IMG/VR virus record: IMGVR_UViG_2585427969_000016
Length of the DNA stretch: 36,412 bases
Origin: a virus
Taxonomy: Duplodnaviria > Heunggongvirae > Uroviricota > Caudoviricetes
Strand: one strand, 5' to 3'
Shown: in pieces, positions 1,896 through 36,412 of the stretch
How positions within the stretch are numbered: the first letter of the stretch is position 1
How the letters are laid out: the number at the start of each line of letters is the position of its first letter
Translations under genes and position numbers: made by a program
Notes under the pieces: model-generated
What the model was told of the DNA's origin: nothing
The model's database searches: none
Seen by the model: the letters and a program-made list of their open reading frames with translations, nothing else

Positions 1896-2909
1896 TTACT
1901 CTACTGTGGACACTGTGTGGACACTCTCGGCCTCAGTACCACCTCTTAGCGGATTAAGAGAAATGGCGTCCTGAAGGTACTCTGGCGCAAAATGAGCGTA
2001 AACCATAGTTTGCTCAATCCGCGTGTGACCTAGTATCCGTTGTAGCGTGATAATACTTCCTCCATTAATCATGAAATGAGTGGCAAAGCTGTGCCTTAGT
2101 GCATGTGTGGCTTGCCCCATTGGCAAATCCGGTTTTATTGCTTTCATTGTTCGTCTGAAGCGAGGGTAATCAGCATCAGGGAATAAAAAACCTCGTTTGT
2201 TATCCGCGATCATTTTGGCAACAGCCTCTGAAATCGGGACGGTGCGTGGTTTGTTTGTTTTCGTTTTAACAAACGTGACGCGGTTATGGATGATATTTTC
2301 TGCTTTCAAACGAGCTGCTTCTCCCCAACGTGCTCCTGTACTCAGGCAAAGAATCGCAATCTTTTTATTGTCGCCGTCAAGTGCTGCAAGCAGTAAGGCA
2401 ATTTCTTCCTGTGTGAGATAGCCTGTTTCTGGTTTTTCCTCCTTAAGCCTCTTTGTCCCTCTGATAGGGTGCTCACCAAAGAATAACTCCGCTTCAATCA
2501 GGGCTGTAAACATGCCGCTAATACATGTTAAATCACGATTGATACTCGAAGGTTTAATACCCTGACTTCTTCGGGTGGCGCAGTACTGGCTGATAAGGGA
2601 TTTCGTGATTTGAAATGCGCATGGGTCATTCGTTATTTTTGTGAAGATTTCAATTTTTCCAAGATTAGATTTCCCATGATCTTCGTGTTTACCCTTTAAA
2701 TCCCACCAGATCTGTGTCAGTTCCGACAGACGTCGTTTGTCTGTTGGTTTTGATAGCCATTCTTTATTGTGGTGGTTGTACAACGTGTATTTTTCGAAAG
2801 CGACAGCTTCGCTTTTCTTATCAAACTTCCTACGGATGCGTTTTCCGTTACGTCCAGTAGGGCGGATGTCCACTTCATATCGACCATCATCGAGTTTTTT
2901 GATTGCCAT
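1896..2909 (-). CDS. int: Tyrosine integrase (P2 Int-like, 337 aa)
   Basis: C-terminal R..HxxR..Y tyrosine-recombinase motifs (ALRHSFATH, HTRIEQTMVYAH); 337 aa like P2 Int; adjacent to attL. Confidence 0.95.
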   Translation of the reverse strand: MAIKKLDDGRYEVDIRPTGRNGKRIRRKFDKKSEAVAFEKYTLYNHHNKEWLSKPTDKRRLSELTQIWWDLKGKHEDHGKSNLGKIEIFTKITNDPCAFQITKSLISQYCATRRSQGIKPSSINRDLTCISGMFTALIEAELFFGEHPIRGTKRLKEEKPETGYLTQEEIALLLAALDGDNKKIAILCLSTGARWGEAARLKAENIIHNRVTFVKTKTNKPRTVPISEAVAKMIADNKRGFLFPDADYPRFRRTMKAIKPDLPMGQATHALRHSFATHFMINGGSIITLQRILGHTRIEQTMVYAHFAPEYLQDAISLNPLRGGTEAESVHTVSTVE

Positions 2910-5213: not shown

Positions 5214-5485
5214 GTATTCGTATTGAAATTGGCGAACGTTATGTCGTTACCAGTGACAGCTTTCAGTTTATTCTCCACGAGAAAAAGAGAGCGGAAAGCG
5301 GTAAAAACGCCGGTCAGGAATGGCTGGCGGTGGTTGGTTATTATCCGAAATTAAGCCAGCTCGTTTCCGGCCTGATGCATCACGATATTCTGACCGGAAG
5401 CGCAAAGTCTTTTGCTGATTTAAACGCGCAGGTTGAGCAACTCAGCAGGCGTTGTTCAGAGGCTTTTGGCTCATATGGCCGTTAA
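5210..5485 (+). CDS. Early hypothetical protein (P2 orf83 position)
   Basis: Synteny; overlaps the start of A. Confidence 0.55.
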   Translation: MSIRIEIGERYVVTSDSFQFILHEKKRAESGKNAGQEWLAVVGYYPKLSQLVSGLMHHDILTGSAKSFADLNAQVEQLSRRCSEAFGSYGR

Positions 5486-7739
5486 AGCCTCCGGGCGTTT
5501 TGTCCCTCCGTCAGCATTTGCCGCAGGCACCGGTAAGGCGTTTACCGGTGCTTATGCATGGAACGCGCCACGCGAGGCTGTCGGGCGCGAAAGACCCCTT
5601 ACACGTGACGAGATGCGTCAGGTGCAAGGGGTTTTATCCACGATTAACCGTCTGCCTTACTTTTTGCGCTCGCTGTTTACTTCACGCTATGACTACATCC
5701 GGCGCAATAAAAGCCCGGTGCACGGGTTTTATTTCCTCACATCCACTTTTCAGCGTCGTTTATGGCCGCGCATTGAGCGTGTGAATCAGCGCCATGAAAT
5801 GAACACCGACGCGTCGTTGCTGTTTCTGGCAGAGCGCGACCAGTATGCGCGCCTGCCGGGGATGAATGACAAGGAGCTGAAAAAGTTTGCTGCCCGTATC
5901 TCATCGCAGCTTTTCATGATGTATGAGGAACTCTGCGATGCCTGGGTTGATGCACATGGCGAAAAAGAATCGCTGTTTACGGATGAGGTGCAGGCTCACC
6001 TCTATGGTCATGTTGCTGGCGCTGCACGTGCTTTCAATATTTCCCCGCTTTACTGGAAAAAATACCGTAAAGGGCAGATGACCACGAGGCAGGCATATTC
6101 TGCCATTGCCCGCCTGTTTAACGATGAGTGGTGGACTCATCAGCTTAAAGGCCAGCGTATGCGCTGGCATGAGGCGTTACTGATTGCTGTCGGGGAGGTC
6201 AATAAAGACCGTTCTCCTTATGCCAGTAAACATGCCATTCGTGATGTGCGTGCGCGCCGCCAGGCAAATCTGGAATTTCTTAAATCGTGTGACCTCGAAA
6301 ACAGGGAAACCGGCGAGCGCATCGACCTTATCAGTAAGGTGATGGGCAGTATTTCTAATCCTGAAATTCGCCGGATGGAGCTGATGAACACCATTGCCGG
6401 TATTGAGCGTTACGCCGCCGCAGAGGGTGATGTGGGGATGTTTATCACGCTGACCGCGCCGTCAAAGTATCACCCGACACGTCAGGTCAGAAAAGGCGAA
6501 AGTAAAACCGTTCAGCTTAATCACGGCTGGAACGATGAGGCATTTAATCCAAAGGATGCGCAGCGTTATCTCTGCCGCATCTGGAGCCTGATGCGCACGG
6601 CATTCAAGGATAATGATTTACAGGTCTACGGTTTGCGTGTCGTCGAGCCACACCACGACGGAACGCCGCACTGGCATATGATGCTTTTTTGTAATCCACG
6701 CCAGCGTAACCAGATTATCGAAATCATGCGTCGCTACGCGCTCAAAGAGGATGGAGACGAAAGAGGAGCTGCGCGAAACCGTTTTCAGGCAAAACACCTT
6801 AACCGGGGCGGTGCTGCGGGATATATCGCGAAATACATTTCAAAAAACATCGACGGCTATGCACTGGATGGTCAGCTCGATAACGACACCGGCAGGCCGC
6901 TGAAAGACACTGCAGCGGCTGTTACCGCATGGGCGTCAACGTGGCGCATCCCGCAATTTAAAACGGTTGGCCTGCCGACAATGGGGGCTTACCGTGAACT
7001 ACGCAAATTGCCGCGCGGCGTCAGCATTGCTGATGAGTTTGACGAGCGCGTCGAGGCTGCACGCGCCGCCGCAGACAGTGGTGATTTTGCGTTGTATATC
7101 AGCGCGCAGGGTGGGGCAAATGTTCCGCGCGATTGTCAGACTGTCAGAGTCGCCCGTAGCCCGTCGGATGACGTTAACGAGTACGAGGAAGAAGTCGAGA
7201 GAGTGGTCGGCATTTACGCACCGCATCTCGGCGCGCGTCATATTCATATCACCAGAACCACGGATTGGCGCATTGTGCCGAAAGTTCCGGTCGTTGAGCC
7301 TTTGACTTTAAAAAGCGGCATCGCCGCGCCTCGGAGTCCTGTCAATAACTGTGGAAAGCTCAACGGTGGTGATACTTCGTTACCGGCTCCCACACCTTCT
7401 GAGCACGCCGCAGCAGTGCTTAATCTGGTTGATGACGGTGTTATCGAATGGAATGACCCGGAGGTTGTGAGGGCGCTCAGAAGCGCATTAAAACACGGCC
7501 TGAGAAGACCAAACCGTCAGCAAAGAAACGGAAGCCCGTTAAAACCACATGAAATTGCACCATCGGCCAGACTGACCCGGTCGGAAAGAATGCAAATCAC
7601 CCGTATCCGCGTTGACCTTGCTCTGAACGGTATCAGGCCGCAGCGATGGGAACTTGAGGCGCTGGCGCGTGGAGCGACATTGGTATATGGCGAAAAAAAA
7701 TTCACATATCAGCTTGTTGATAAGCAGTTTGGTTTTTAA
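5475..7739 (+). CDS. A: Replication initiation endonuclease A (rolling-circle initiator); start taken at the MAVKAS ATG
   Basis: About 755 aa with HUH-type motif (PHWHMMLF) and tyrosine-containing AGYIAKYISKN; position and size as P2 gpA. Confidence 0.9.
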   Translation: MAVKASGRFVPPSAFAAGTGKAFTGAYAWNAPREAVGRERPLTRDEMRQVQGVLSTINRLPYFLRSLFTSRYDYIRRNKSPVHGFYFLTSTFQRRLWPRIERVNQRHEMNTDASLLFLAERDQYARLPGMNDKELKKFAARISSQLFMMYEELCDAWVDAHGEKESLFTDEVQAHLYGHVAGAARAFNISPLYWKKYRKGQMTTRQAYSAIARLFNDEWWTHQLKGQRMRWHEALLIAVGEVNKDRSPYASKHAIRDVRARRQANLEFLKSCDLENRETGERIDLISKVMGSISNPEIRRMELMNTIAGIERYAAAEGDVGMFITLTAPSKYHPTRQVRKGESKTVQLNHGWNDEAFNPKDAQRYLCRIWSLMRTAFKDNDLQVYGLRVVEPHHDGTPHWHMMLFCNPRQRNQIIEIMRRYALKEDGDERGAARNRFQAKHLNRGGAAGYIAKYISKNIDGYALDGQLDNDTGRPLKDTAAAVTAWASTWRIPQFKTVGLPTMGAYRELRKLPRGVSIADEFDERVEAARAAADSGDFALYISAQGGANVPRDCQTVRVARSPSDDVNEYEEEVERVVGIYAPHLGARHIHITRTTDWRIVPKVPVVEPLTLKSGIAAPRSPVNNCGKLNGGDTSLPAPTPSEHAAAVLNLVDDGVIEWNDPEVVRALRSALKHGLRRPNRQQRNGSPLKPHEIAPSARLTRSERMQITRIRVDLALNGIRPQRWELEALARGATLVYGEKKFTYQLVDKQFGF

Positions 7740-8017
7740 TCAAATAGTGTATTAAATGTACTAAAATGTATCTTTTTATATAAAAAACAAAGTGTTGAAT
7801 TAATTCTCGGCTTTTGTATTTTTTAGATCGTAAACCGATTAGTGTTACCAAGAGTATTCAGTTAATAGGGCTTTAATTTTTTGCTTCCCTGTTTTGGTGG
7901 TTATGTGGTACTGTGTTTTTATACAGTTTTTGAGGTTGCTGAGAAATAGAGAATGATAGAGTTATATGCGAGCCTTAGTTTAATTCGTTGTAATTAGGAT
8001 CGGGTATATCATTCGTG

Positions 8018-8128
8018 CTGTCAGTGGTCCTATACCACTAAGCAAAGCAATAGAATCCTACGAATTATTGTTTAAATAGTAACATTGGCAATTATAACGG
8101 CAGTATCTGTGTTTTGTCTGTCAGTGGT
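8018..8128. promoter_or_regulatory. Two copies of CTGTCAGTGGT exactly 100 bp apart in the AT-rich leader of the cargo operon; first copy sits in a hairpin AGTGGT-N5-ACCACT (8023..8039)
   Basis: Exact 11-bp direct repeat at 8018..8028 and 8118..8128 in a 500-bp non-coding region. Confidence 0.3.
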
Positions 8129-8240
8129 TACATCGAGAGTATGTGATTTGCATTACATAACTAGTTGATGTTCCTTAGTTGTAGATAGAAAGTATTCGAT
8201 TTATTATAAGAGTACAAAAATTTATGCTAAGGATACTAGA

Positions 8241-8432
8241 ATGGAGTGGATTACACATATCATCACTTTCTTTGTCGGACTGGGAGCGGGTTGGTCGATT
8301 CGTGTCGTGTTTTCATCTAGAAAGCAAATTGGTAATTCCAGCGTGAACTCAAACAATCATACAGTTACTCAAACTGGTAACAGTGTTACAAATGGAAGTA
8401 TTGTTGGCGGTAATCAGGATAGGTCACATTAA
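8241..8432 (+). CDS. Cargo gene 1: small membrane protein (N-terminal TM helix, Asn/Ser/Thr/Gly-rich tail)
   Basis: ATG with AAGGA Shine-Dalgarno; hydrophobic segment ITHIITFFVGLGAGWSIRVVF; low-GC DNA. Confidence 0.55.
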   Translation: MEWITHIITFFVGLGAGWSIRVVFSSRKQIGNSSVNSNNHTVTQTGNSVTNGSIVGGNQDRSH

Positions 8433-8443
8433 GAGGTGTTGGT

Positions 8444-9007
8444 GTGTCTATCGAACAGTCAGGAAATACCGTAACAAATGGCAACATAATTTCTGGTGAT
8501 CAGACTAATCATATATTCAATTATCCTGTTAAAGGAACTAACCGGGAGATACAGAAACTTTATGAGTGTTTGAAGAGAGGTGATATAGGGGAAGCGGTTC
8601 CGGGGTTTTGTGCTGAACTAGAGCATTATATGTCCCTTCAGCCTGATATTGATGTTCGGGGGTTAGACGCTAAATTACTCGAGAGTAATAGAAAAGATTT
8701 GTTGTTTTTAGCTAAGCAGATGAAGGAAAAAGCAACAAAAGCCATAATGCGTCGCCAGACGTCAAAAACTGCACAAAGAATATTTGTAATAATTTTAGAT
8801 CAAATTCATTTTGATTTTATAACGAAAGTAACACCACTTATAGAAGCGGATAGCTCCAGAGTGATTGTTGATGAGAAAATCGCTTCAATAATTGATGAAT
8901 TATATTCGTCTTTGGGAGAGAACTTGCTAGAGCTAACAGCAAAAGATCTCTTGGGATTACTATTTTTTCTGGGTGGCAATTGCCATATAAGGTGGGATAA
9001 ATGCTAA
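8444..9007 (+). CDS. Cargo gene 2: helical protein of unknown function (GTG start), possible effector/coupling component
   Basis: GTG start 5 nt after strong AAGAGGTG Shine-Dalgarno; N-terminus repeats the GN(S/T)VTNG motif of gene 1; stop overlaps the gene 3 start. Confidence 0.6.
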   Translation: MSIEQSGNTVTNGNIISGDQTNHIFNYPVKGTNREIQKLYECLKRGDIGEAVPGFCAELEHYMSLQPDIDVRGLDAKLLESNRKDLLFLAKQMKEKATKAIMRRQTSKTAQRIFVIILDQIHFDFITKVTPLIEADSSRVIVDEKIASIIDELYSSLGENLLELTAKDLLGLLFFLGGNCHIRWDKC

Positions 9008-9501
9008 TTTACCATCCAGCATATGATGCATATCATTGTTTATTCAGAATGATTGCTCTTATAGACCATGTAAATGAAATTGAGGTAGATAAGGCCAGGA
9101 TTTTGGACTTCTATCTGCTATTTCCTGCTTTGGTATCTGAAATTAGAATGCCTCATAATTATTCTTCAATGAAGAAAGAAGCGAAGAAGTATTCTAATAT
9201 ATATCGGGATCCTATTAATGTTAGATCTACATTCAGAGATATGTATGAAATTCAAATGGCAGCAATAAGATGTCTTGCAGCTACTGGGTTGGTTGAGATG
9301 GATTGTCTTGAGAAAAACATTATAAAGAGAACAGATAAGTCTGTTCCAGATGGCTTATTACTTTCTATTAATAATTTTATTAATACGAATAAAATTATTA
9401 ATACATTTATCATAGATACACTATCTAAATTCCATTTGGTTGGAAAAGATGGTTTAAAAGATAGAACGAAGTTAATGGAGTTTAGATATGACTATTCTTA
9501 A
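9001..9501 (+). CDS. Cargo gene 3: small helical protein, candidate middle component
   Basis: AGGTGG Shine-Dalgarno; 7-nt overlap with gene 2 and 14-nt overlap with gene 4 (translational coupling). Confidence 0.6.
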   Translation: MLIYHPAYDAYHCLFRMIALIDHVNEIEVDKARILDFYLLFPALVSEIRMPHNYSSMKKEAKKYSNIYRDPINVRSTFRDMYEIQMAAIRCLAATGLVEMDCLEKNIIKRTDKSVPDGLLLSINNFINTNKIINTFIIDTLSKFHLVGKDGLKDRTKLMEFRYDYS

Positions 9502-11425
9502 TCCATCTTTTTTTGTTAGTAAATTAAAAGTTTTCCAAGCTGGGCATGAAGCATTTAGCTGTGTTTTCCATAAAGGGGTAAATGTAATAAGGGGGCGAAA
9601 TAGCTCTGGCAAAACTACTGTTATGGATCTTTTAGCATTTTCACTTGGTGCTGAAAATATTAGCTTGAAACCAACAGCTCTTTTATGTTCATTTACCATG
9701 GTTGAAGTGCTTTTGAATAATAATCTTGCCTGTTTTAAGCGGGAGATAAGTTCAGAATCCATGCGGCCGTTGAGTATTTTTTGGGGCTCGATGGATAAAG
9801 CTCTTAACTCATCACCGAGTCAGTGGCAAACTTATCCTTTTAAGCGTTCAGAAAAATCACTGAGTTTTTCTCAGGTAATCCTAAATGCTTTGGATATGCC
9901 TCTAGCTCAAGGAGAGGGTGCTTCAATTTTAACAATGCATCAAATCCTACGTGTATTATATGCAGATCAGCCATCTCTTCATAGTCCTATATTTAGGAAC
10001 GATAATTTTGATAGAGCTCTAACACGAGAGACTATTGGTGATTATTTATGTGGTATATTTGATGACAAACTTTATAGCTCTTTGATTAGGCTTAAACAGG
10101 TTGATGCTGAACTTTCGACAAAAATTGTTGAGCTGAAAAGCATATTTAAAGTTCTTGGACGCTCTGGGCAATCGCAGCATGTAAGTTTTATTGACGATAA
10201 AATAAAAGAGCTAAGAGAGAAGAAAGAAAAGATCAATGGAGAGCTTATCTCTCTCAAAGAGAGTAATAACTCTTCTGTTAATGATAAAAATGCTGATAAA
10301 ACTAAAACTAACAACCTTCGAAAAAATTTAAATAAAGCGAAGGAAGAAGAAGTAAAAAATATTGACAGTATCCATATGTTAGAAATGGAGATAGCTGACT
10401 CTGAAATGTTCATTAATGAGTTAGAATCCAGATTGCGCTCTCTTAATGAATCAAGTATTGCCAGAGACTATTTTAGCAACGTTAAATTTCAATTTTGTCC
10501 CAGTTGTTTAAGTGAGTTGAATATTTCCTCTGAAAATGAGTGCTCATTATGTAAAAATCACGCGCCAGAGGGTAGTGATGCTCCTCAATTATTAAGGATG
10601 AAAAATGAGATTTCTATCCAATTAAAAGAATCCAGAGATCTTCTTGAGCATAATTATGTAAAACTGAGAGAGCTTAAGAGCCAATCTCCTGCTTTAAAGC
10701 AAAAAGTGCGAGATTTAATTCGTGAATATGAAGAAGTCTCTAAGGTTTGGGAAAATGCCTATGAAATAGAGTTTGAAACTCTTACTAAGGCTCTGGGACG
10801 TGTTGAAGAAGAAATTAAACAGGCTTGTGAATTACAAAAACTTAGTGATGTAATATCTGATTTGCAAAAAGATCGTGATAGTCTGCAGTCAGAGAAGGAG
10901 AGATTGTCCTCTTTAATTGAATCTTTGGAGAGTAAAGAGGAATATAGGAAGAAGGATATTTCTAAAACTATAGAAAACATTATGAAAAGACTTCTTAAAA
11001 AAGATCTTCCATTGCAGACTGAATTTATTGATCCTAGAAAAGTTAATTTTAGCTTTGCCGATAATACTGTTTATGTAAATGGGTCTAAGTATTTTTCAGA
11101 AAGTTCAGCAGTTGTATTAAGACATCTCTTTCATTTAGCATTGTTAACTGCAAGTATTGAAAAAAAATACATGAGATTACCTCGTTTCCTAATGCTTGAT
11201 GGAATTGACGATGGTGGAATGGAGAAAGAGCGCAGTCACAATCTGCAGAAAATAATAGTACAAGAAACTCAATCGTATCAATATGATTTTCAAATAATTT
11301 ATGCGACATCGGAGATTAATCCAGAATATGAAAATACCGATTTGATTGTTGGTCGATATTTTAATCCAGATGATAAATCATTAAAGATAAATTATACCGC
11401 TCTTGATAAAGATTTATTGAACTAA
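9488..11425 (+). CDS. Cargo gene 4: SMC/Rad50-like ABC ATPase with coiled-coil insert and CxxC..CxxC hook
   Basis: Walker A GRNSSGKTT near N-terminus; Walker B/D-loop FLMLDGIDDGG near C-terminus; about 300 aa of K/E/L-rich heptad-like sequence between them with CPSC..CSLC at residues 337-355. Confidence 0.8.
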   Translation: MTILNPSFFVSKLKVFQAGHEAFSCVFHKGVNVIRGRNSSGKTTVMDLLAFSLGAENISLKPTALLCSFTMVEVLLNNNLACFKREISSESMRPLSIFWGSMDKALNSSPSQWQTYPFKRSEKSLSFSQVILNALDMPLAQGEGASILTMHQILRVLYADQPSLHSPIFRNDNFDRALTRETIGDYLCGIFDDKLYSSLIRLKQVDAELSTKIVELKSIFKVLGRSGQSQHVSFIDDKIKELREKKEKINGELISLKESNNSSVNDKNADKTKTNNLRKNLNKAKEEEVKNIDSIHMLEMEIADSEMFINELESRLRSLNESSIARDYFSNVKFQFCPSCLSELNISSENECSLCKNHAPEGSDAPQLLRMKNEISIQLKESRDLLEHNYVKLRELKSQSPALKQKVRDLIREYEEVSKVWENAYEIEFETLTKALGRVEEEIKQACELQKLSDVISDLQKDRDSLQSEKERLSSLIESLESKEEYRKKDISKTIENIMKRLLKKDLPLQTEFIDPRKVNFSFADNTVYVNGSKYFSESSAVVLRHLFHLALLTASIEKKYMRLPRFLMLDGIDDGGMEKERSHNLQKIIVQETQSYQYDFQIIYATSEINPEYENTDLIVGRYFNPDDKSLKINYTALDKDLLN

Positions 11426-11429
11426 CAAC

Positions 11430-11459
11430 CAAAACCATGCATAACCATGCATGGTTTTG
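11430..11459. terminator. Perfect 13-bp stem / 4-nt loop hairpin (CAAAACCATGCAT-AACC-ATGCATGGTTTTG) directly after the cargo operon
   Basis: Inverted repeat read from sequence, 5 bp after the stop of cargo gene 4. Confidence 0.55.
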
Positions 11460-11558: not shown

Positions 11559-11577
11559 GGCGAGGCGGGGAAAGCAC
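11559..11577. other. cos cohesive-end site (GGCGAGGCGGGGAAAGCAC)
   Basis: Matches the recalled 19-nt P2 cohesive end; located between the post-A variable region and Q as in P2. Confidence 0.7.
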
Positions 11578-11746: not shown

Positions 11747-12781
11747 TCAGTCGTTGTCAGTGTCCAGTGAGTAGTTTTTAAAGCGGATGACCTCCTGACC
11801 GAGCCAGCCGTTTATTTCCCGAATCCTGTCCTGTAACGGGATAAGCTCATTGCGGACAAAGACCTTTGCCACTTTCTCAATATCGCCCAGTGACCCGACG
11901 TTCTCCGGCTTGCCGCCCATCAACTGAAAGGGGATGCGGTGCGCGTCCAGCAGGTCAGCGGCGCTGGCTTTTTTGATATTAAAAAAATCGTCTTTCGTCG
12001 CCACTTCACTGAGCGGGATAATTTTAATGCCGTCGGCTTTTCCCTGCGGGGCGTAGAGAAACAGATTTTTAAAGTTGTTGCGGCCTTTCGACTTAACCAT
12101 GTTTTCGCGAAGCATTTCGATATCGTTGCGATCCTGCACGGCATCGGTGACGTACATGATGTATCCGGCATGTGCGCCGTTTTCGTAATACTTGCGGCGG
12201 AACAGCGTGGCCGATTCATTCAGCCAGGCAGAGTTAAGGGCGCTGAGATATTCCGGCAGGCCGTACAGCTCCTGATTAATATCCGGCTCCAGCAGGTGAA
12301 ACACGGAACCGGGCGCGAAGGCTGTCGGCTCGTTGAAGGACGGCACCCACCAGTAAACATCCTCTTCCACACCACGGCGGGTATATTTTGCCGGTGAGGT
12401 TTCCAGTCTGATGACTTTACCGGTAGTGCTGTAACGCTTTTCCAGAAACGCATTACCGAACACCAGAAAATCCAGCACAAAGCGGCTGAAATCCTGCTGG
12501 GACAGCCACGGGTGCGGGATAAACGTTGAAGCCAGAATATTACGTTTGACGTAAATCGGTGAGCTGTGATGCACGGCAGCACGCAGGCTTTTTGCCAGAC
12601 CGGTAAAGCTGATTGGTGGCTCATACCATCTACCGTTACTGATGCATTCGACGTAATCCAGAATGTCACGGCGGTCGAGTACCGGCACCGGCTCACCAAA
12701 GGTGAATGCCTCCATTTTCGGGGCGCTGGCGGTCATTGTTTTTGCCGCAGGTTGCGGTGTTTTCCCTTTTTTCTTGCTCAT
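11747..12781 (-). CDS. Q: Portal protein Q (344 aa)
   Basis: Length, order and sequence consistent with P2 gpQ. Confidence 0.92.
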   Translation of the reverse strand: MSKKKGKTPQPAAKTMTASAPKMEAFTFGEPVPVLDRRDILDYVECISNGRWYEPPISFTGLAKSLRAAVHHSSPIYVKRNILASTFIPHPWLSQQDFSRFVLDFLVFGNAFLEKRYSTTGKVIRLETSPAKYTRRGVEEDVYWWVPSFNEPTAFAPGSVFHLLEPDINQELYGLPEYLSALNSAWLNESATLFRRKYYENGAHAGYIMYVTDAVQDRNDIEMLRENMVKSKGRNNFKNLFLYAPQGKADGIKIIPLSEVATKDDFFNIKKASAADLLDAHRIPFQLMGGKPENVGSLGDIEKVAKVFVRNELIPLQDRIREINGWLGQEVIRFKNYSLDTDND

Positions 12782-26503: not shown

Positions 26504-27031
26504 ATGCAGCATTTGATAAATATAACCGCGGGTAATCCAAAAACGGTTGAACAATATCAATTGACAAAGGACTTTGATGTTGTCTGGTTTTTTACAGAAG
26601 ATGGTAAGAACTGGTACGAAGAACAAAAGTATTTTGCTGATGACACGATAAAAATAGCGTACGACAAGGATAATATTATCCGCTATATGGAAAAAGATGT
26701 GACAGCTATCAGACCAGATGGATTAAGTGTGGTTGAAGTGGCGGATATTACTGCTAACCGACGGGCGGACATTTCAGGGAACTGGATGTTTAAGGACGGC
26801 AAAGTGATTAAACGCATTTATACGGCAGAGGAATTGCAGCAGCAGGCAGAAAACCGGAAAGCCAGACTTCTTGCAGATGCTGAATCCGTGATTTTGCCGC
26901 TGGAGCGCGCGGTCAGACTGAACATGGCAACAGATGAGGAGCGTAGCCGACTGGATGCATGGGAGCGTTACAGCGTTCTGGTCAGTCGTGTGGATCCTGC
27001 AAATCCTGAATGGCCGGAAATGCCGCAATAA
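26504..27031 (+). CDS. G: Tail fibre assembly chaperone G (175 aa)
   Basis: Synteny and length as P2 gpG. Confidence 0.9.
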
Positions 27032-27252: not shown

Positions 27253-27846
27253 ATGTTTACTAAGCGACGATTAAAAAATATTAACTGGGAGGCAAGTTCA
27301 GTGATTCTTGCTATGGTTCTCTTTGTTGGAAATATATTTTATACAAATCATCGTGATGATATAAGCATGGAGGCTGAGAGGGACAGTATCAGAACAATGT
27401 TTGCATATGAAATCGCTAATAACCATCGCGCTCTCACTTTTCTTGATAAAACGAGACATATTGGCTTTGACGAAAATTCGGAGCATTTTGTTGGCGAGCC
27501 TTTTGCCATTAATGTCAAATCATTAGGGGGGCCTCGCTTACAGATTGCATTAAACCAGACTGATAAAGTGTTTAAATCCTACTTCAGCGAATTAAGTAAG
27601 CTTGATAAAGAGGATGTTACTCTTCTTATGGACTATTACCATGAGCAAAGCATCCTGCTGGAGCGTGTAAAATCTACGTTACAGAAGATGAAAAGTGGTA
27701 ATGATATTAAAGTTGATATTGATGGTTACTTATTAGAAGAACACTTCATGAATGAGCTTAATCTTTCTAATATTTTGCTTAAACGCTATAGCCATTTGTT
27801 GTCACAACACGCTAAAGAACATAAAACAAAAGATTTACATAATTGA
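27253..27846 (+). CDS. Cargo gene at the P2 Z/fun position: 197-aa protein with one N-terminal TM helix and a helical cytoplasmic domain; function unknown
   Basis: AAGGTG Shine-Dalgarno; hydrophobic SSVILAMVLFVGNIFY; AT-rich island between G and FI. Confidence 0.65.
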   Translation: MFTKRRLKNINWEASSVILAMVLFVGNIFYTNHRDDISMEAERDSIRTMFAYEIANNHRALTFLDKTRHIGFDENSEHFVGEPFAINVKSLGGPRLQIALNQTDKVFKSYFSELSKLDKEDVTLLMDYYHEQSILLERVKSTLQKMKSGNDIKVDIDGYLLEEHFMNELNLSNILLKRYSHLLSQHAKEHKTKDLHN

Positions 27847-35050: not shown

Positions 35051-36412
35051 TCACTTACCGTGGGGGTTACGCGTGGTTTCCCCGGAGAAATTACGCATCA
35101 GGAGCGCGTAATTTAGCTCAAGATCCTGCGGGACCGGGAGCCACACAGTATAACCATCGCCTGGTGCGACCGGCATAGCTTCACCTTTGGCGTTTTCCAT
35201 GTGCTCAAGGGTAAAGTTAATGTTGCCTTGCGGCGTCATCAGCTCAAGGCTGTCACCAACGGAGAATTTATTTTTCACCGCTACCGCCGCGAGGTCGCCC
35301 TTGCGCTCACCGGTAAACTCACCAACAAACTGCTGGCGGTCAGAAACTGAATAACCGTATTCGTAGTTCTGATAATCGTCGTGAGTATGACGACGCAGGA
35401 AACCTTCGGTATAGCCACGATGCGCCAGACCTTCCAGAGTTTCCAGCAGGCTGGTATCGAATGGTTTTCCCGCAGCTGCGTCATCGATAGCTTTACGGTA
35501 AACCTGCGCGGTGCGTGCGCAATAGTAGAAAGATTTGGTACGGCCTTCGATTTTCAGCGAATGCACTCCCATTTTGGTCAGGCGTTCTACATGGGCGATG
35601 GCGCGCAGATCTTTCGAGTTCATGATGTAAGTGCCGTGCTCATCTTCAAACGCGGTCATATACTCGCCCGGACGCTGGGCCTCTTCGATCATAAACACTT
35701 TGTCGGTTGGTGCGCCGATACCCAGCGTCGGCTCAACATTTTGCACCGGAATCGGCTCGTACTTGTGTACGATGTTGCCAACGTCATCTTCTTTCCCTTC
35801 CTGGACGTTGTATTCCCAGCGGCAGGCGTTGGTGCAGGTGCCCTGGTTCGGGTCGCGCTTGTTGATATAGCCAGAGAGCAGGCAGCGACCGGAGTAGGCC
35901 ATGCACAGCGCGCCGTGAACGAAGATCTCTACCTCCATATCCGGCACCTGATTGCGGATCTCTTCAATCTCTTCCAGCGACAGCTCGCGAGAGAGGATCA
36001 CGCGGGTCAGGCCCATTTGCTGCCAGAATTTCACCGTCGCCCAGTTCACGGCGTTAGCCTGTACCGAGAGATGGATCGGCATTTCAGGGAAGTGCTCACG
36101 CACCAGCATAATCAGCCCTGGATCGGACATAATCAGCGCATCCGGCCCCATTTCCACCACCGGTTTCAGGTCACGGATAAAGGTTTTCAGCTTGGCGTTG
36201 TGCGGTGCAATGTTGACCACGACATAAAACTTTTTCCCCAGCGCGTGGGCTTCATTGATGCCGAGCTGGAGATTTTCGTGGTTAAATTCGTTGTTGCGCA
36301 CACGCAGGGAGTAACGCGGCTGGCCCGCATAAACAGCATCTGCGCCATAAGCGAAAGCGTAACGCATATTTTTCAGCGTTCCCGCCGGGGAAAGGAGTTC
36401 CGGTTTAAACAT
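35051..36412 (-). CDS. yegQ: U32-family peptidase-like protein YegQ (TrhP, tRNA hydroxylation), complete; start codon at the window edge
   Basis: 453-aa ORF; length and sequence match my recollection of E. coli YegQ. Confidence 0.88.
   Translation of the reverse strand: MFKPELLSPAGTLKNMRYAFAYGADAVYAGQPRYSLRVRNNEFNHENLQLGINEAHALGKKFYVVVNIAPHNAKLKTFIRDLKPVVEMGPDALIMSDPGLIMLVREHFPEMPIHLSVQANAVNWATVKFWQQMGLTRVILSRELSLEEIEEIRNQVPDMEVEIFVHGALCMAYSGRCLLSGYINKRDPNQGTCTNACRWEYNVQEGKEDDVGNIVHKYEPIPVQNVEPTLGIGAPTDKVFMIEEAQRPGEYMTAFEDEHGTYIMNSKDLRAIAHVERLTKMGVHSLKIEGRTKSFYYCARTAQVYRKAIDDAAAGKPFDTSLLETLEGLAHRGYTEGFLRRHTHDDYQNYEYGYSVSDRQQFVGEFTGERKGDLAAVAVKNKFSVGDSLELMTPQGNINFTLEHMENAKGEAMPVAPGDGYTVWLPVPQDLELNYALLMRNFSGETTRNPHGK

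Follow-up and report, generated by a model that had tools for sequence, protein, structure and literature searches.

Lamassu systems are found in roughly 10-15% of prokaryotic genomes, and their output is thought to be an enzyme that is fused to the protein LmuA. The subject of this study is an operon on a 36,412-nucleotide stretch of viral DNA (Caudoviricetes; IMG/VR record IMGVR_UViG_2585427969_000016; in the following called the window), which carries a P2-like prophage. Judged by its sequence, it is a four-gene Lamassu (ABC-three component, ABC-3C; short type II) defence operon. Its LmuA begins with a short motif that is found again at the end of a small hydrophobic peptide encoded directly upstream. 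The two motif copies are conserved and co-evolve, and they probably couple the Lamassu sensor to the separately encoded membrane peptide.

The described Lamassu systems possess an LmuA with an enzymatic N-terminal domain (PMC10586767). Such domains are nucleases, lipases, proteases, Sir2 and others; the C-terminal domain, one of CTD1-12, docks on LmuB and LmuC, and LmuB, the ATPase, has a Walker A motif, a coiled coil and often a zinc hook of the CxxC kind. The C-terminal domain of LmuA is an oligomerisation domain, which is held monomeric by LmuB2-LmuC and freed when DNA ends are sensed; its oligomerisation activates the N-terminal part (10.1101/2025.03.14.643221; 10.1101/2025.06.23.660979). 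In the solved resting complexes no contacts to LmuB or LmuC are visible for the N-terminal part of LmuA (10.1101/2025.03.14.643221), and effectors are freely exchangeable for that reason. Oligomerisation of LmuA on release has been published for CTD7 (10.1101/2025.03.14.643221), and for LmuAs with CTD8 or CTD9 cyclic oligomers are predicted (10.1101/2025.03.14.643221; 10.1101/2025.06.23.660979). A Lamassu clade O, whose effector was described as 'seemingly lost', was reported in 2025 without an explanation (Haudiquet et al., 10.1101/2025.04.02.646746). It comprises more than 100 sequences from more than 40 species, with a short LmuA and full-length LmuC and LmuB (10.1101/2025.04.02.646746).

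The second kind of system to be considered is amyloid signalling, known from fungi, filamentous bacteria and E. coli, in which the N-terminal motif of an oligomerised receptor turns into a cross-beta structure and templates the matching C-terminal motif of a membrane-targeting effector from the neighbouring gene (10.1101/2024.11.07.622273; 10.1101/2020.01.06.895854). Bab/Agp is an amyloid-signalling abortive infection system of E. coli with the motif BASS11 (Ibarlosa et al., 10.1101/2024.11.07.622273). Beta-breaker mutations in either motif copy abolish its defence, and after infection with T5 a motif-dependent assembly is seen and the effector moves to the cell periphery (10.1101/2024.11.07.622273).

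The four genes of the operon

The features of the operon are as follows.

8241-8432, plus strand: gene 1, an open reading frame (ORF) with ATG start for a peptide of 63 amino acids (aa), the proposed effector (RefSeq WP_001403151.1, hypothetical protein)
8247-8312, plus strand: residues 3-24 of gene 1, the hydrophobic helix WITHIITFFVGLGAGWSIRVVF; GLGAGW in it is conserved, and SSRK comes after the helix
8370-8417, plus strand: motif copy 1 (by alignment), residues 44-59 of gene 1, QTGNSVTNGSIVGGNQ
8431-8438, plus strand: Shine-Dalgarno sequence AAGAGGTG of gene 2, overlapping the TAA of gene 1 (8430-8432)
8444-9007, plus strand: gene 2, LmuA-type protein of 187 aa with GTG start (Pfam CTD9; RefSeq 'ABC-three component system protein')
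8456-8503, plus strand: motif copy 2 (by alignment), residues 5-20 of gene 2, QSGNTVTNGNIISGDQ
8660-8995, plus strand: CTD9, residues 73-184 of gene 2, the LmuA docking and oligomerisation domain (Pfam, 2.4e-29)
9001-9501, plus strand: gene 3, LmuC, ABC-3C middle component 5 (Pfam MC5, 1.9e-52, full length)
9488-11425, plus strand: gene 4, LmuB, SMC/Rad50-like ABC ATPase (PADLOC LmuB, 4.5e-47, residues 6-573)

The combination of CTD9, MC5 and a LmuB-type ATPase identifies a Lamassu system with gene 2 as its LmuA. The gene for LmuC lies between lmuA and lmuB, as in all related loci, and overlaps gene 2 by 7 nt and gene 4 by 14 nt. LmuB also matches AAA_23 and SMC_N of Pfam, and its translation contains the Walker A motif GRNSSGKT and two CxxC motifs (CPSC...CSLC). 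No relatives of LmuB were found in the PDB by phmmer (E <= 0.001), none of CTD9 in a PDB search with the domain profile, and NCBIfam holds no model for genes 1-3. Thus the hallmarks LmuB, LmuC and LmuA's C-terminal domain are present and the enzymatic N-terminal effector domain of LmuA is not, for which reason we class the operon as a variant of the Lamassu family. The original prediction, which was made from the letters of the window, had not recognised gene 2 as LmuA of a Lamassu/ABC-3C system, and it is this context that gives the motif its meaning.

Gene 2 consists of the motif, a disordered linker and CTD9. For the 72 residues ahead of CTD9 no match was obtained in Pfam, NCBIfam or PADLOC. 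In the AlphaFold2 (AF2) monomer model the predicted local distance difference test score (pLDDT) of residues 1-30 is below 50, and helices at a pLDDT around 90 make up the remaining part. The protein starts with M-SIEQSGNTVTNGNIISGDQTNH (in a longer reading MSIEQSGNTVTNGNIISGDQTNH), in another frame than gene 1. GTG 8444 is the only in-frame start codon after the preceding stop, the RefSeq start is identical, and orthologues with ATG begin 3-5 residues ahead of the motif. The AAGAGG core of the Shine-Dalgarno sequence lies 7 nt ahead of the GTG; this strong site next to the TAA had been pointed out before, and its overlap with the stop codon fits translational coupling of genes 1 and 2. A short LmuA is the rule among the relatives: the 114 homologues in a collection clustered at 90% have 181-223 aa apart from fragments, and among 619 clusters at 50% identity the best 150 have almost all 180-200 aa.

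The product of gene 1 has a hydrophobic helix at its N-terminus, followed by a variable linker rich in S, T and N and by the motif, and it ends with ...TQTGNSVTNGSIVGGNQDRSH-TAA (in a longer reading ...TVTQTGNSVTNGSIVGGNQDRSH-TAA). It belongs to PHROG 17975, a family of unknown function, and could not be assigned to any family in Pfam, NCBIfam or PADLOC. A Pfam match to MP31 (E = 0.059) is far below the cut-off and was taken as spurious. Exactly the same protein is present on 732 contigs. In comparison to the Phytobacter orthologue the proportion of nonsynonymous differences (pN) is 0.09 and that of synonymous differences (pS) 0.74, which is saturated, with dN/dS about 0.03. By region pN amounts to 0.06 in the helix, 0.04 in the motif and 0.21 in the linker. 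Since pS is saturated while pN is low, gene 1 is by this comparison a real gene, with strong purifying selection on helix and motif and not on the linker, which varies among the Enterobacterales and contains indels there.

The highest Kyte-Doolittle mean over 19 residues in gene 1 is 1.64 (residues 7-25). AF2 models a helix at residues 2-18 and the remainder as disordered. F10, G13 and G17 show no or almost no variation from one bacterial class to another. As basic residues follow the helix, the tail of the peptide would by the positive-inside rule be cytoplasmic.

Two seemingly unrelated kinds of helix are seen among the peptides of the related loci described below. One, M[ED][YW]L[ST]H..TF.AGLGAGW.LK (class A), and the other, MDWTEIGKW.LAAIAA.AAVGLVFK (class B), separate L015, L020-L023, L025, L029, L047 and L049 from the other loci, and both are followed by the same C-terminal motif. 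That one motif is kept with both classes suggests that the helix is exchangeable and the coupling motif is not. The N-terminus of the peptide (M-D/E..., with a central Gly) also recalls the conserved N-terminal helix of Bab and Bell, a resemblance which is an impression only.

The shared motif in related loci

The last 19 residues of gene 1 match the first 20 of gene 2, with a local BLOSUM62 score of 63 over 19 residues. Shuffling was confined to the 37-residue tail of gene 1 and the 30-residue N-terminus of gene 2, which controls for composition; the shuffled sequences scored 23.4 in the mean (standard deviation 4.7, maximum 52), and none of 20,000 reached 63. At the DNA level the two copies are 58% identical and their third codon positions are alike in 7 of 19 cases, which indicates conservation at the level of the protein. 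The original prediction had described the same unit in two reading frames, with exactly these sequences, and had taken it for protein-level conservation and not for a recent DNA duplication; both points hold.

In the Enterobacterales Q44, N47, V49, S53-G56 and Q59 of copy 1 are invariant. Among 33 diverse homologues of gene 2, N8 of copy 2 is invariant and Q5 and G13 are nearly so. Both copies are disordered in the AF2 monomer models. The consensus over both proteins is x-Q-x-[GN]-N-x-[AV]-G-G-D-[ILM]-[VAI]-G-[GR]-D-x-x-K, about 18 residues. Across 34 non-redundant pairs the motif is enriched in N (3.2x), G (2.8x), Q (1.8x), D (1.8x) and V (1.4x) and depleted of L (0.2x) and P (0.02x). There is no enrichment of I (0.95x), and K is barely depleted (0.83x).

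A degenerate second copy of the motif in the linker of gene 1, comparable to that in HET-s or BASS1/6, was considered and rejected (E. coli P = 0.10). Of the loci tested, that of E. coli included, the only one with a candidate for such a copy is the one of Bradyrhizobium australiense (L035:4723-4920), where SANTVSGDSQGK may be a degenerate counterpart of SGNTVRGHMSGR (P = 0.004, uncorrected).

Related loci were collected from both sides. A search with the CTD9 signature GNCHIRWD, taking one genome per species, gave 37 loci, which belong to gamma-, beta- and alphaproteobacteria and, in one case, to a metagenome-assembled genome (MAG) of the Bacteroidota. A search with a narrower peptide alignment in metagenomes gave 11 loci, of which L048 was discarded as a false positive that matches the helix only. 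The genes for CTD9, MC5 and LmuB follow each other in identical order in all 37 loci of the first search. A peptide gene precedes them in 35 of the 37 and in 10 of the 11, which makes about 45 loci. In nearly all loci the upstream ORF has 50-80 aa and encodes a hydrophobic helix at the N-terminus and the motif at the C-terminus. Its end lies anywhere from 4 nt within to 11 nt ahead of the CTD9 gene, in varying frames, and every peptide-bearing locus has the motif on both proteins.

Three loci are exceptional. The contig of L030 begins at the CTD9 gene. In L018 the motif of the peptide is kept and its helix is out of frame, due to either a frameshift (a pseudogene) or an assembly error; the peptide motif of this locus (Ottowia flava, L018:4729-4993), TQNNNQAGRDIIGGD, matches AGRDVIGRD of its partner. 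In L037 neither motif nor peptide is present, and a DUF676 serine esterase is fused to CTD9. This 465-aa LmuA of Azospirillum tabaci (L037:3969-5366) consists of the esterase with a THSLGG nucleophile elbow, a Pro/Thr-rich linker and CTD9, with MC5 and LmuB downstream. A different N-terminal globular domain is fused to CTD9 in P0236, where motif and peptide are absent as well. 'All-in-one' relatives with an enzyme or another globular domain in the N-terminal slot hence exist (L037 and P0236). A further protein, P0231 (187 aa, a cluster representative), has a hydrophobic helix, TMLLAATWLLGIFIKIITF, directly ahead of CTD9 and no G/N-rich motif; it may be a cis version with a transmembrane (TM) effector in the N-terminal slot of LmuA.

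The long entries P0136, P0190 and P0220, which look like fusions, apparently owe their length to over-called starts, by which the peptide gene is read in a wrong frame, and at the N-terminus they are rich in arginine and resemble no real domain. A fusion of genes 1 and 2 by read-through or frameshifting was likewise rejected, as no slippery heptamer was seen ahead of the TAA and the loci differ in both spacing and frame.

These loci bear on the two interpretations that the original prediction had offered, of which one is supported and the other is not. Two modules that share an interaction motif agree with its presence on both proteins and with the co-variation described below. The ancestral split of a single membrane-anchored protein does not: the two genes are separate throughout, with the repeat conserved on both, and no fusion of peptide, motif and CTD9 was found among 261 CTD9 proteins examined. 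In a relic of such a split, a membrane-anchored LmuA would have been cut in two and the repeat left behind without a function of its own; in favour of this, P0231 shows that a TM segment can fill the slot ahead of CTD9. A simple split, however, does not create two copies of a motif, P0231 has no motif, and both copies are strongly constrained and co-vary across three proteobacterial classes and the Bacteroidota. We consider such a relic very improbable.

The two copies of each locus vary together. In 34 non-redundant loci cognate motif pairs of peptide and CTD9 protein score 52.0 and non-cognate pairs 34.6 (z = 9.8), none of 200,000 permutations reaches the observed sum, and for 13 of the 34 peptides their own partner is the best match. 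The following variants are found on both proteins of the respective loci.

Enterobacterales: NGSIVG[GR][DN]Q
Many betaproteobacteria: GGD[IM][VA]GGD
L035: GHM.GRDVNV
L036: GNL.GRDVN
L024 (Bacteroidota MAG): DIAGRD[VI]N
L041: VHGDM.AGD
L046: GGDQAGG
L011 and L022: I in place of the N that is invariant elsewhere

It was also considered that two low-complexity stretches rich in Asn, Gly and Thr resemble each other by chance. Both regions are compositionally biased, but the outcome of the shuffling and a motif that is conserved and co-varies in about 45 independent loci leave this with next to no probability. Gene conversion was rejected as the cause of the matching: codons of aligned identical residues agree in 42%, and in 37% when like residues of one locus are paired without regard to the alignment, at positions that do not correspond (p = 0.11), in line with the third-position count in the window. 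Independent divergence after an old duplication would not give the excess of cognate matches. Co-variation without gene conversion thus points to matching that is maintained by selection on the proteins.

The same co-variation statistics would arise if two ligands tracked one evolving pocket. The tail of the peptide and the N-terminus of LmuA would in that case not bind each other and would compete for one site, either on LmuB or LmuC or on a host factor, for example a chaperone or protease. The role of the peptide would be regulation, as an inhibitor, decoy or stabiliser, and it would not be the effector. In favour of this, nothing else is missing from the operon, whose LmuC and LmuB are full-length, but the system would be left without an effector. 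Moreover, relatives carry an esterase or other globular domain exactly at the slot of the motif, a soluble competitor does not need a strongly conserved hydrophobic helix, and the N-terminal part of LmuA has no visible contacts to LmuB or LmuC in the solved complexes. Competition for a third partner is therefore improbable in our view.

A possible route from motif to membrane

On balance we lean towards a split effector, in which the motifs of oligomerised LmuA nucleate an amyloid-like assembly with the tails of the peptide, thereby clustering its helices and aborting the infection. At rest, CTD9 would be kept monomeric by LmuB2-LmuC. When LmuB detects DNA ends or replication structures of a phage, LmuA would be freed and CTD9 would self-associate as a cyclic oligomer. 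Several N-terminal motifs would then lie side by side and could form a stacked beta-sheet as an amyloid-like nucleus, which would recruit or template the matching motif of the peptide tails. Finally, the glycine-rich hydrophobic helices of the peptides would cluster in the inner membrane and permeabilise it, so that the infection is aborted. Clustering of TM helices is a known killing mechanism of Cap15-type effectors of CBASS.

The anatomy of the system is solid, and the mechanism we infer from it on good grounds. Sequestration, release and oligomerisation driven by the C-terminal domain are deduced from the published work on other Lamassu systems, and the operon probably uses this activation route too. 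Pairing of the motifs, their amyloid character and damage of the membrane by the peptide would follow by analogy with Bab/Agp and HET-S/NWD2. The position of the operon in a defence hotspot (see below) is no more than circumstantial evidence for a role in abortive infection. Going further, unicellular Proteobacteria might possess a new family of amyloid-signalling motifs that acts downstream of a sensor of the SMC type (Lamassu), with oligomerised LmuA-CTD9 templating a single-helix peptide in a prion-like manner; we regard this idea as somewhat doubtful.

Several points weigh against the assembly of motifs and the killing by the peptide. The motif has about 18 residues, compared to about 25 in typical BASS motifs. 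Its two conserved Asp residues would stack in a parallel in-register sheet unless they are paired with the conserved K/R; an essential Asp is present in BASS11 (10.1101/2024.11.07.622273). Oligomerisation of CTD9 is a matter of AlphaFold 3 (AF3) predictions by others only, which concern lipase-bearing LmuAs (10.1101/2025.03.14.643221). The helix of the peptide is moderately hydrophobic and has a conserved R/K at position 21, which makes constitutive insertion into the membrane uncertain, and neither the family searches nor AF2 revealed a Bell/HeLo-type globular domain in gene 1, which has a single helix only. Co-variation would, as mentioned, also be expected with a common third partner. In the literature searched no anti-phage activity of this operon was found. 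The search brought up nothing that links Lamassu or ABC-3C with amyloid or a TM peptide; Krishnan et al. 2020, who reportedly defined CTD9 and MC5, may already describe the peptide.

The data on co-variation and architecture would fit equally to a stoichiometric tether, in which the two motifs form a heteromeric beta-zipper at 1:1 (or n:n) and no templated self-propagation takes place. The peptide would serve LmuA as a detachable anchor and bring the Lamassu complex to the membrane, and once CTD9 oligomerises the number of clustered helices would equal that of the LmuA subunits, so that the difference to the split effector with amyloid-like assembly lies in stoichiometry and amplification only. 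The motif is short, the peptide carries a single copy of it without a significant pseudo-repeat, and the N-terminal part of LmuA, being contact-free in the resting complex, is free to bind. On the other hand, the composition, rich in G, N and Q and depleted of P and L, resembles that of beta-arch amyloid motifs more than that of specific heterodimer interfaces, a near-identical homotypic pair favours like-on-like stacking, and both copies are disordered in the monomer models. A tether is conceivable, yet we think it unlikely.

Surroundings of the operon and relation to known systems

The operon lies in a cargo island between two genes of the prophage.

5433-7739: gpA, P2 replication protein (Phage_GPA, 7.6e-123)
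7800-11400: AT-rich cargo island with the operon, between gpA and gpQ
11747-12781, minus strand: gpQ, assigned as the portal gene

The GC content of the island is 31-38%, that of its flanks 52-57%. It contains the four closely packed genes on the plus strand, and 3' of it the minus strand carries the portal and terminase genes. The interval between gpA and gpQ is a known defence hotspot of P2-like phages (PMC9122126). An identical island is present in 19 of 5,426 complete E. coli genomes, where RefSeq labels the genes as hypothetical protein, ABC-3C protein, MC5 and AAA ATPase.

A perfect palindrome of 30 nt, CAAAACCATGCATAACCATGCATGGTTTTG (11430-11459), starts 5 nt past the stop of lmuB at the boundary of island and prophage. 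Lacking a T-tract, it does not qualify as a typical intrinsic terminator; an element that serves for recombination or marks the boundary of the cargo cassette is conceivable. At about 11559-11577 follows GGCGAGGCGGGGAAAGCAC, which appears to match the cohesive-end sequence of P2 cos. In that case the island would lie directly next to cos, as described for the hotspots of P2 and P4.

An ORF of 197 aa at 27253-27846, without Pfam match and assigned to PHROG 3829 (unknown function), has the tail-fibre assembly gene (26504-27031) on one side and the sheath gene on the other. P2-like phages have their second variable locus (Z/fun-type) at this place, and the ORF may be another accessory or defence gene. 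An integrase gene (1896-2909, minus strand) lies at the left end of the prophage. The flanks (1-900 and 35051-36412 of the window) contain genes for a YegS-like lipid kinase (DAGK_cat and YegS_C) and a U32 peptidase, which gives the site of insertion into the chromosome.

Clade O of Lamassu, whose description does not mention an upstream peptide or a shared motif (10.1101/2025.04.02.646746), is presumably the peptide/CTD9 family studied here. The data suggest that the effector was not lost and instead moved to an upstream mini-gene, re-linked by a matched and co-evolving motif. If this is true, the 'effector-less' clade is accounted for, and programs that detect defence systems should add the fourth gene. 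Amyloid-type signalling through homotypic motifs is to our knowledge so far shown in bacteria only for Bab/Agp; it would be extended to an SMC-based sensor and to a far wider set of bacterial groups. Should the prion-like templating apply, a peptide of 50-70 aa with a single helix would be the smallest known executioner of its kind, and amyloid signalling would be a portable output module that is not tied to NLR or TGP receptors. An 18-residue tag and a single helix would also make a very small swappable two-part switch for testing how oligomerisation leads to membrane killing, and the natural variants of the motif (NGSIVGGNQ, GGDIVGGD, GHMSGRDVNV and others) would be a ready specificity series.

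Membrane killing as such is well established. The TM effectors of CBASS (Cap14/Cap15), Pycsar (PycTM), Thoeris and retrons kill by clustering their helices in the inner membrane once the cytoplasmic domain oligomerises. In these systems, which are nucleotide-triggered, the sensing or oligomerising domain and the TM helices reside on one polypeptide, in contrast to the operon described here, where the link would be a separate matched peptide motif. Coupling of separate proteins by the same module on effector and sensor was reportedly described by Kaur, Burroughs, Iyer and Aravind in 2020 for the effector-associated domains (EADs) of NTPase conflict systems. EADs are said to be folded, death-domain-like globular modules, unlike the short motif found here, which is disordered in the monomer models.

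With the Bell/NLR systems of filamentous bacteria (BASS1-10) and the fungal HET-S/NWD2 (10.1101/2020.01.06.895854) the operon shares a motif that the effector has at its C-terminus and the receptor at its N-terminus, collinear genes that are mostly at most 10 bp apart or overlapping, and the existence of 'all-in-one' relatives. In its bias towards Q, N, G and V and away from P and L the motif resembles what was reported for BASS1-10 (10.1101/2020.01.06.895854), but I is not enriched, K is barely depleted and D is enriched. The whole signature, a motif at the effector C-terminus and the sensor-side N-terminus encoded by adjacent collinear genes at a distance of -4 to +11 nt, holds in about 45 loci. 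In contrast to BASS1-10 and HET-S the sensor side is the C-terminal domain of LmuA and no NLR with NB-ARC or NACHT domain, the effector is not of the Bell or HeLo kind, and the motif is shorter than in BASS1-10. BASS1-10 were reported from multicellular Actinobacteria and Cyanobacteria (10.1101/2020.01.06.895854), whereas the hosts here are unicellular Proteobacteria.

The similarity to Bab/Agp comprises the adjacent collinear genes in a prophage defence hotspot of E. coli, the N-terminal hydrophobic helix of the effector and the short motif with G, N, Q and D at the C-terminus of the effector and the N-terminus of the sensor side. In Bab the hydrophobic helix is cupped by a four-helix 'Babybell' domain of about 80 aa, whereas the peptide described here has the helix only.

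In comparison to the enzymatic Lamassu, ABC-3C and DdmABC systems (Cap4-CTD7; lipase-CTD8/9, 'Ec-Lipase') the operon has the same LmuB, LmuC (MC5) and CTD9 and the same A-C-B gene order. It differs in that a motif of 18-20 residues stands in place of the N-terminal effector domain of LmuA, and in that an additional fourth gene upstream encodes a hydrophobic peptide with the motif of LmuA. The motif pair is thus a variant of two known kinds of system, Lamassu and signalling by amyloid or homotypic motifs.

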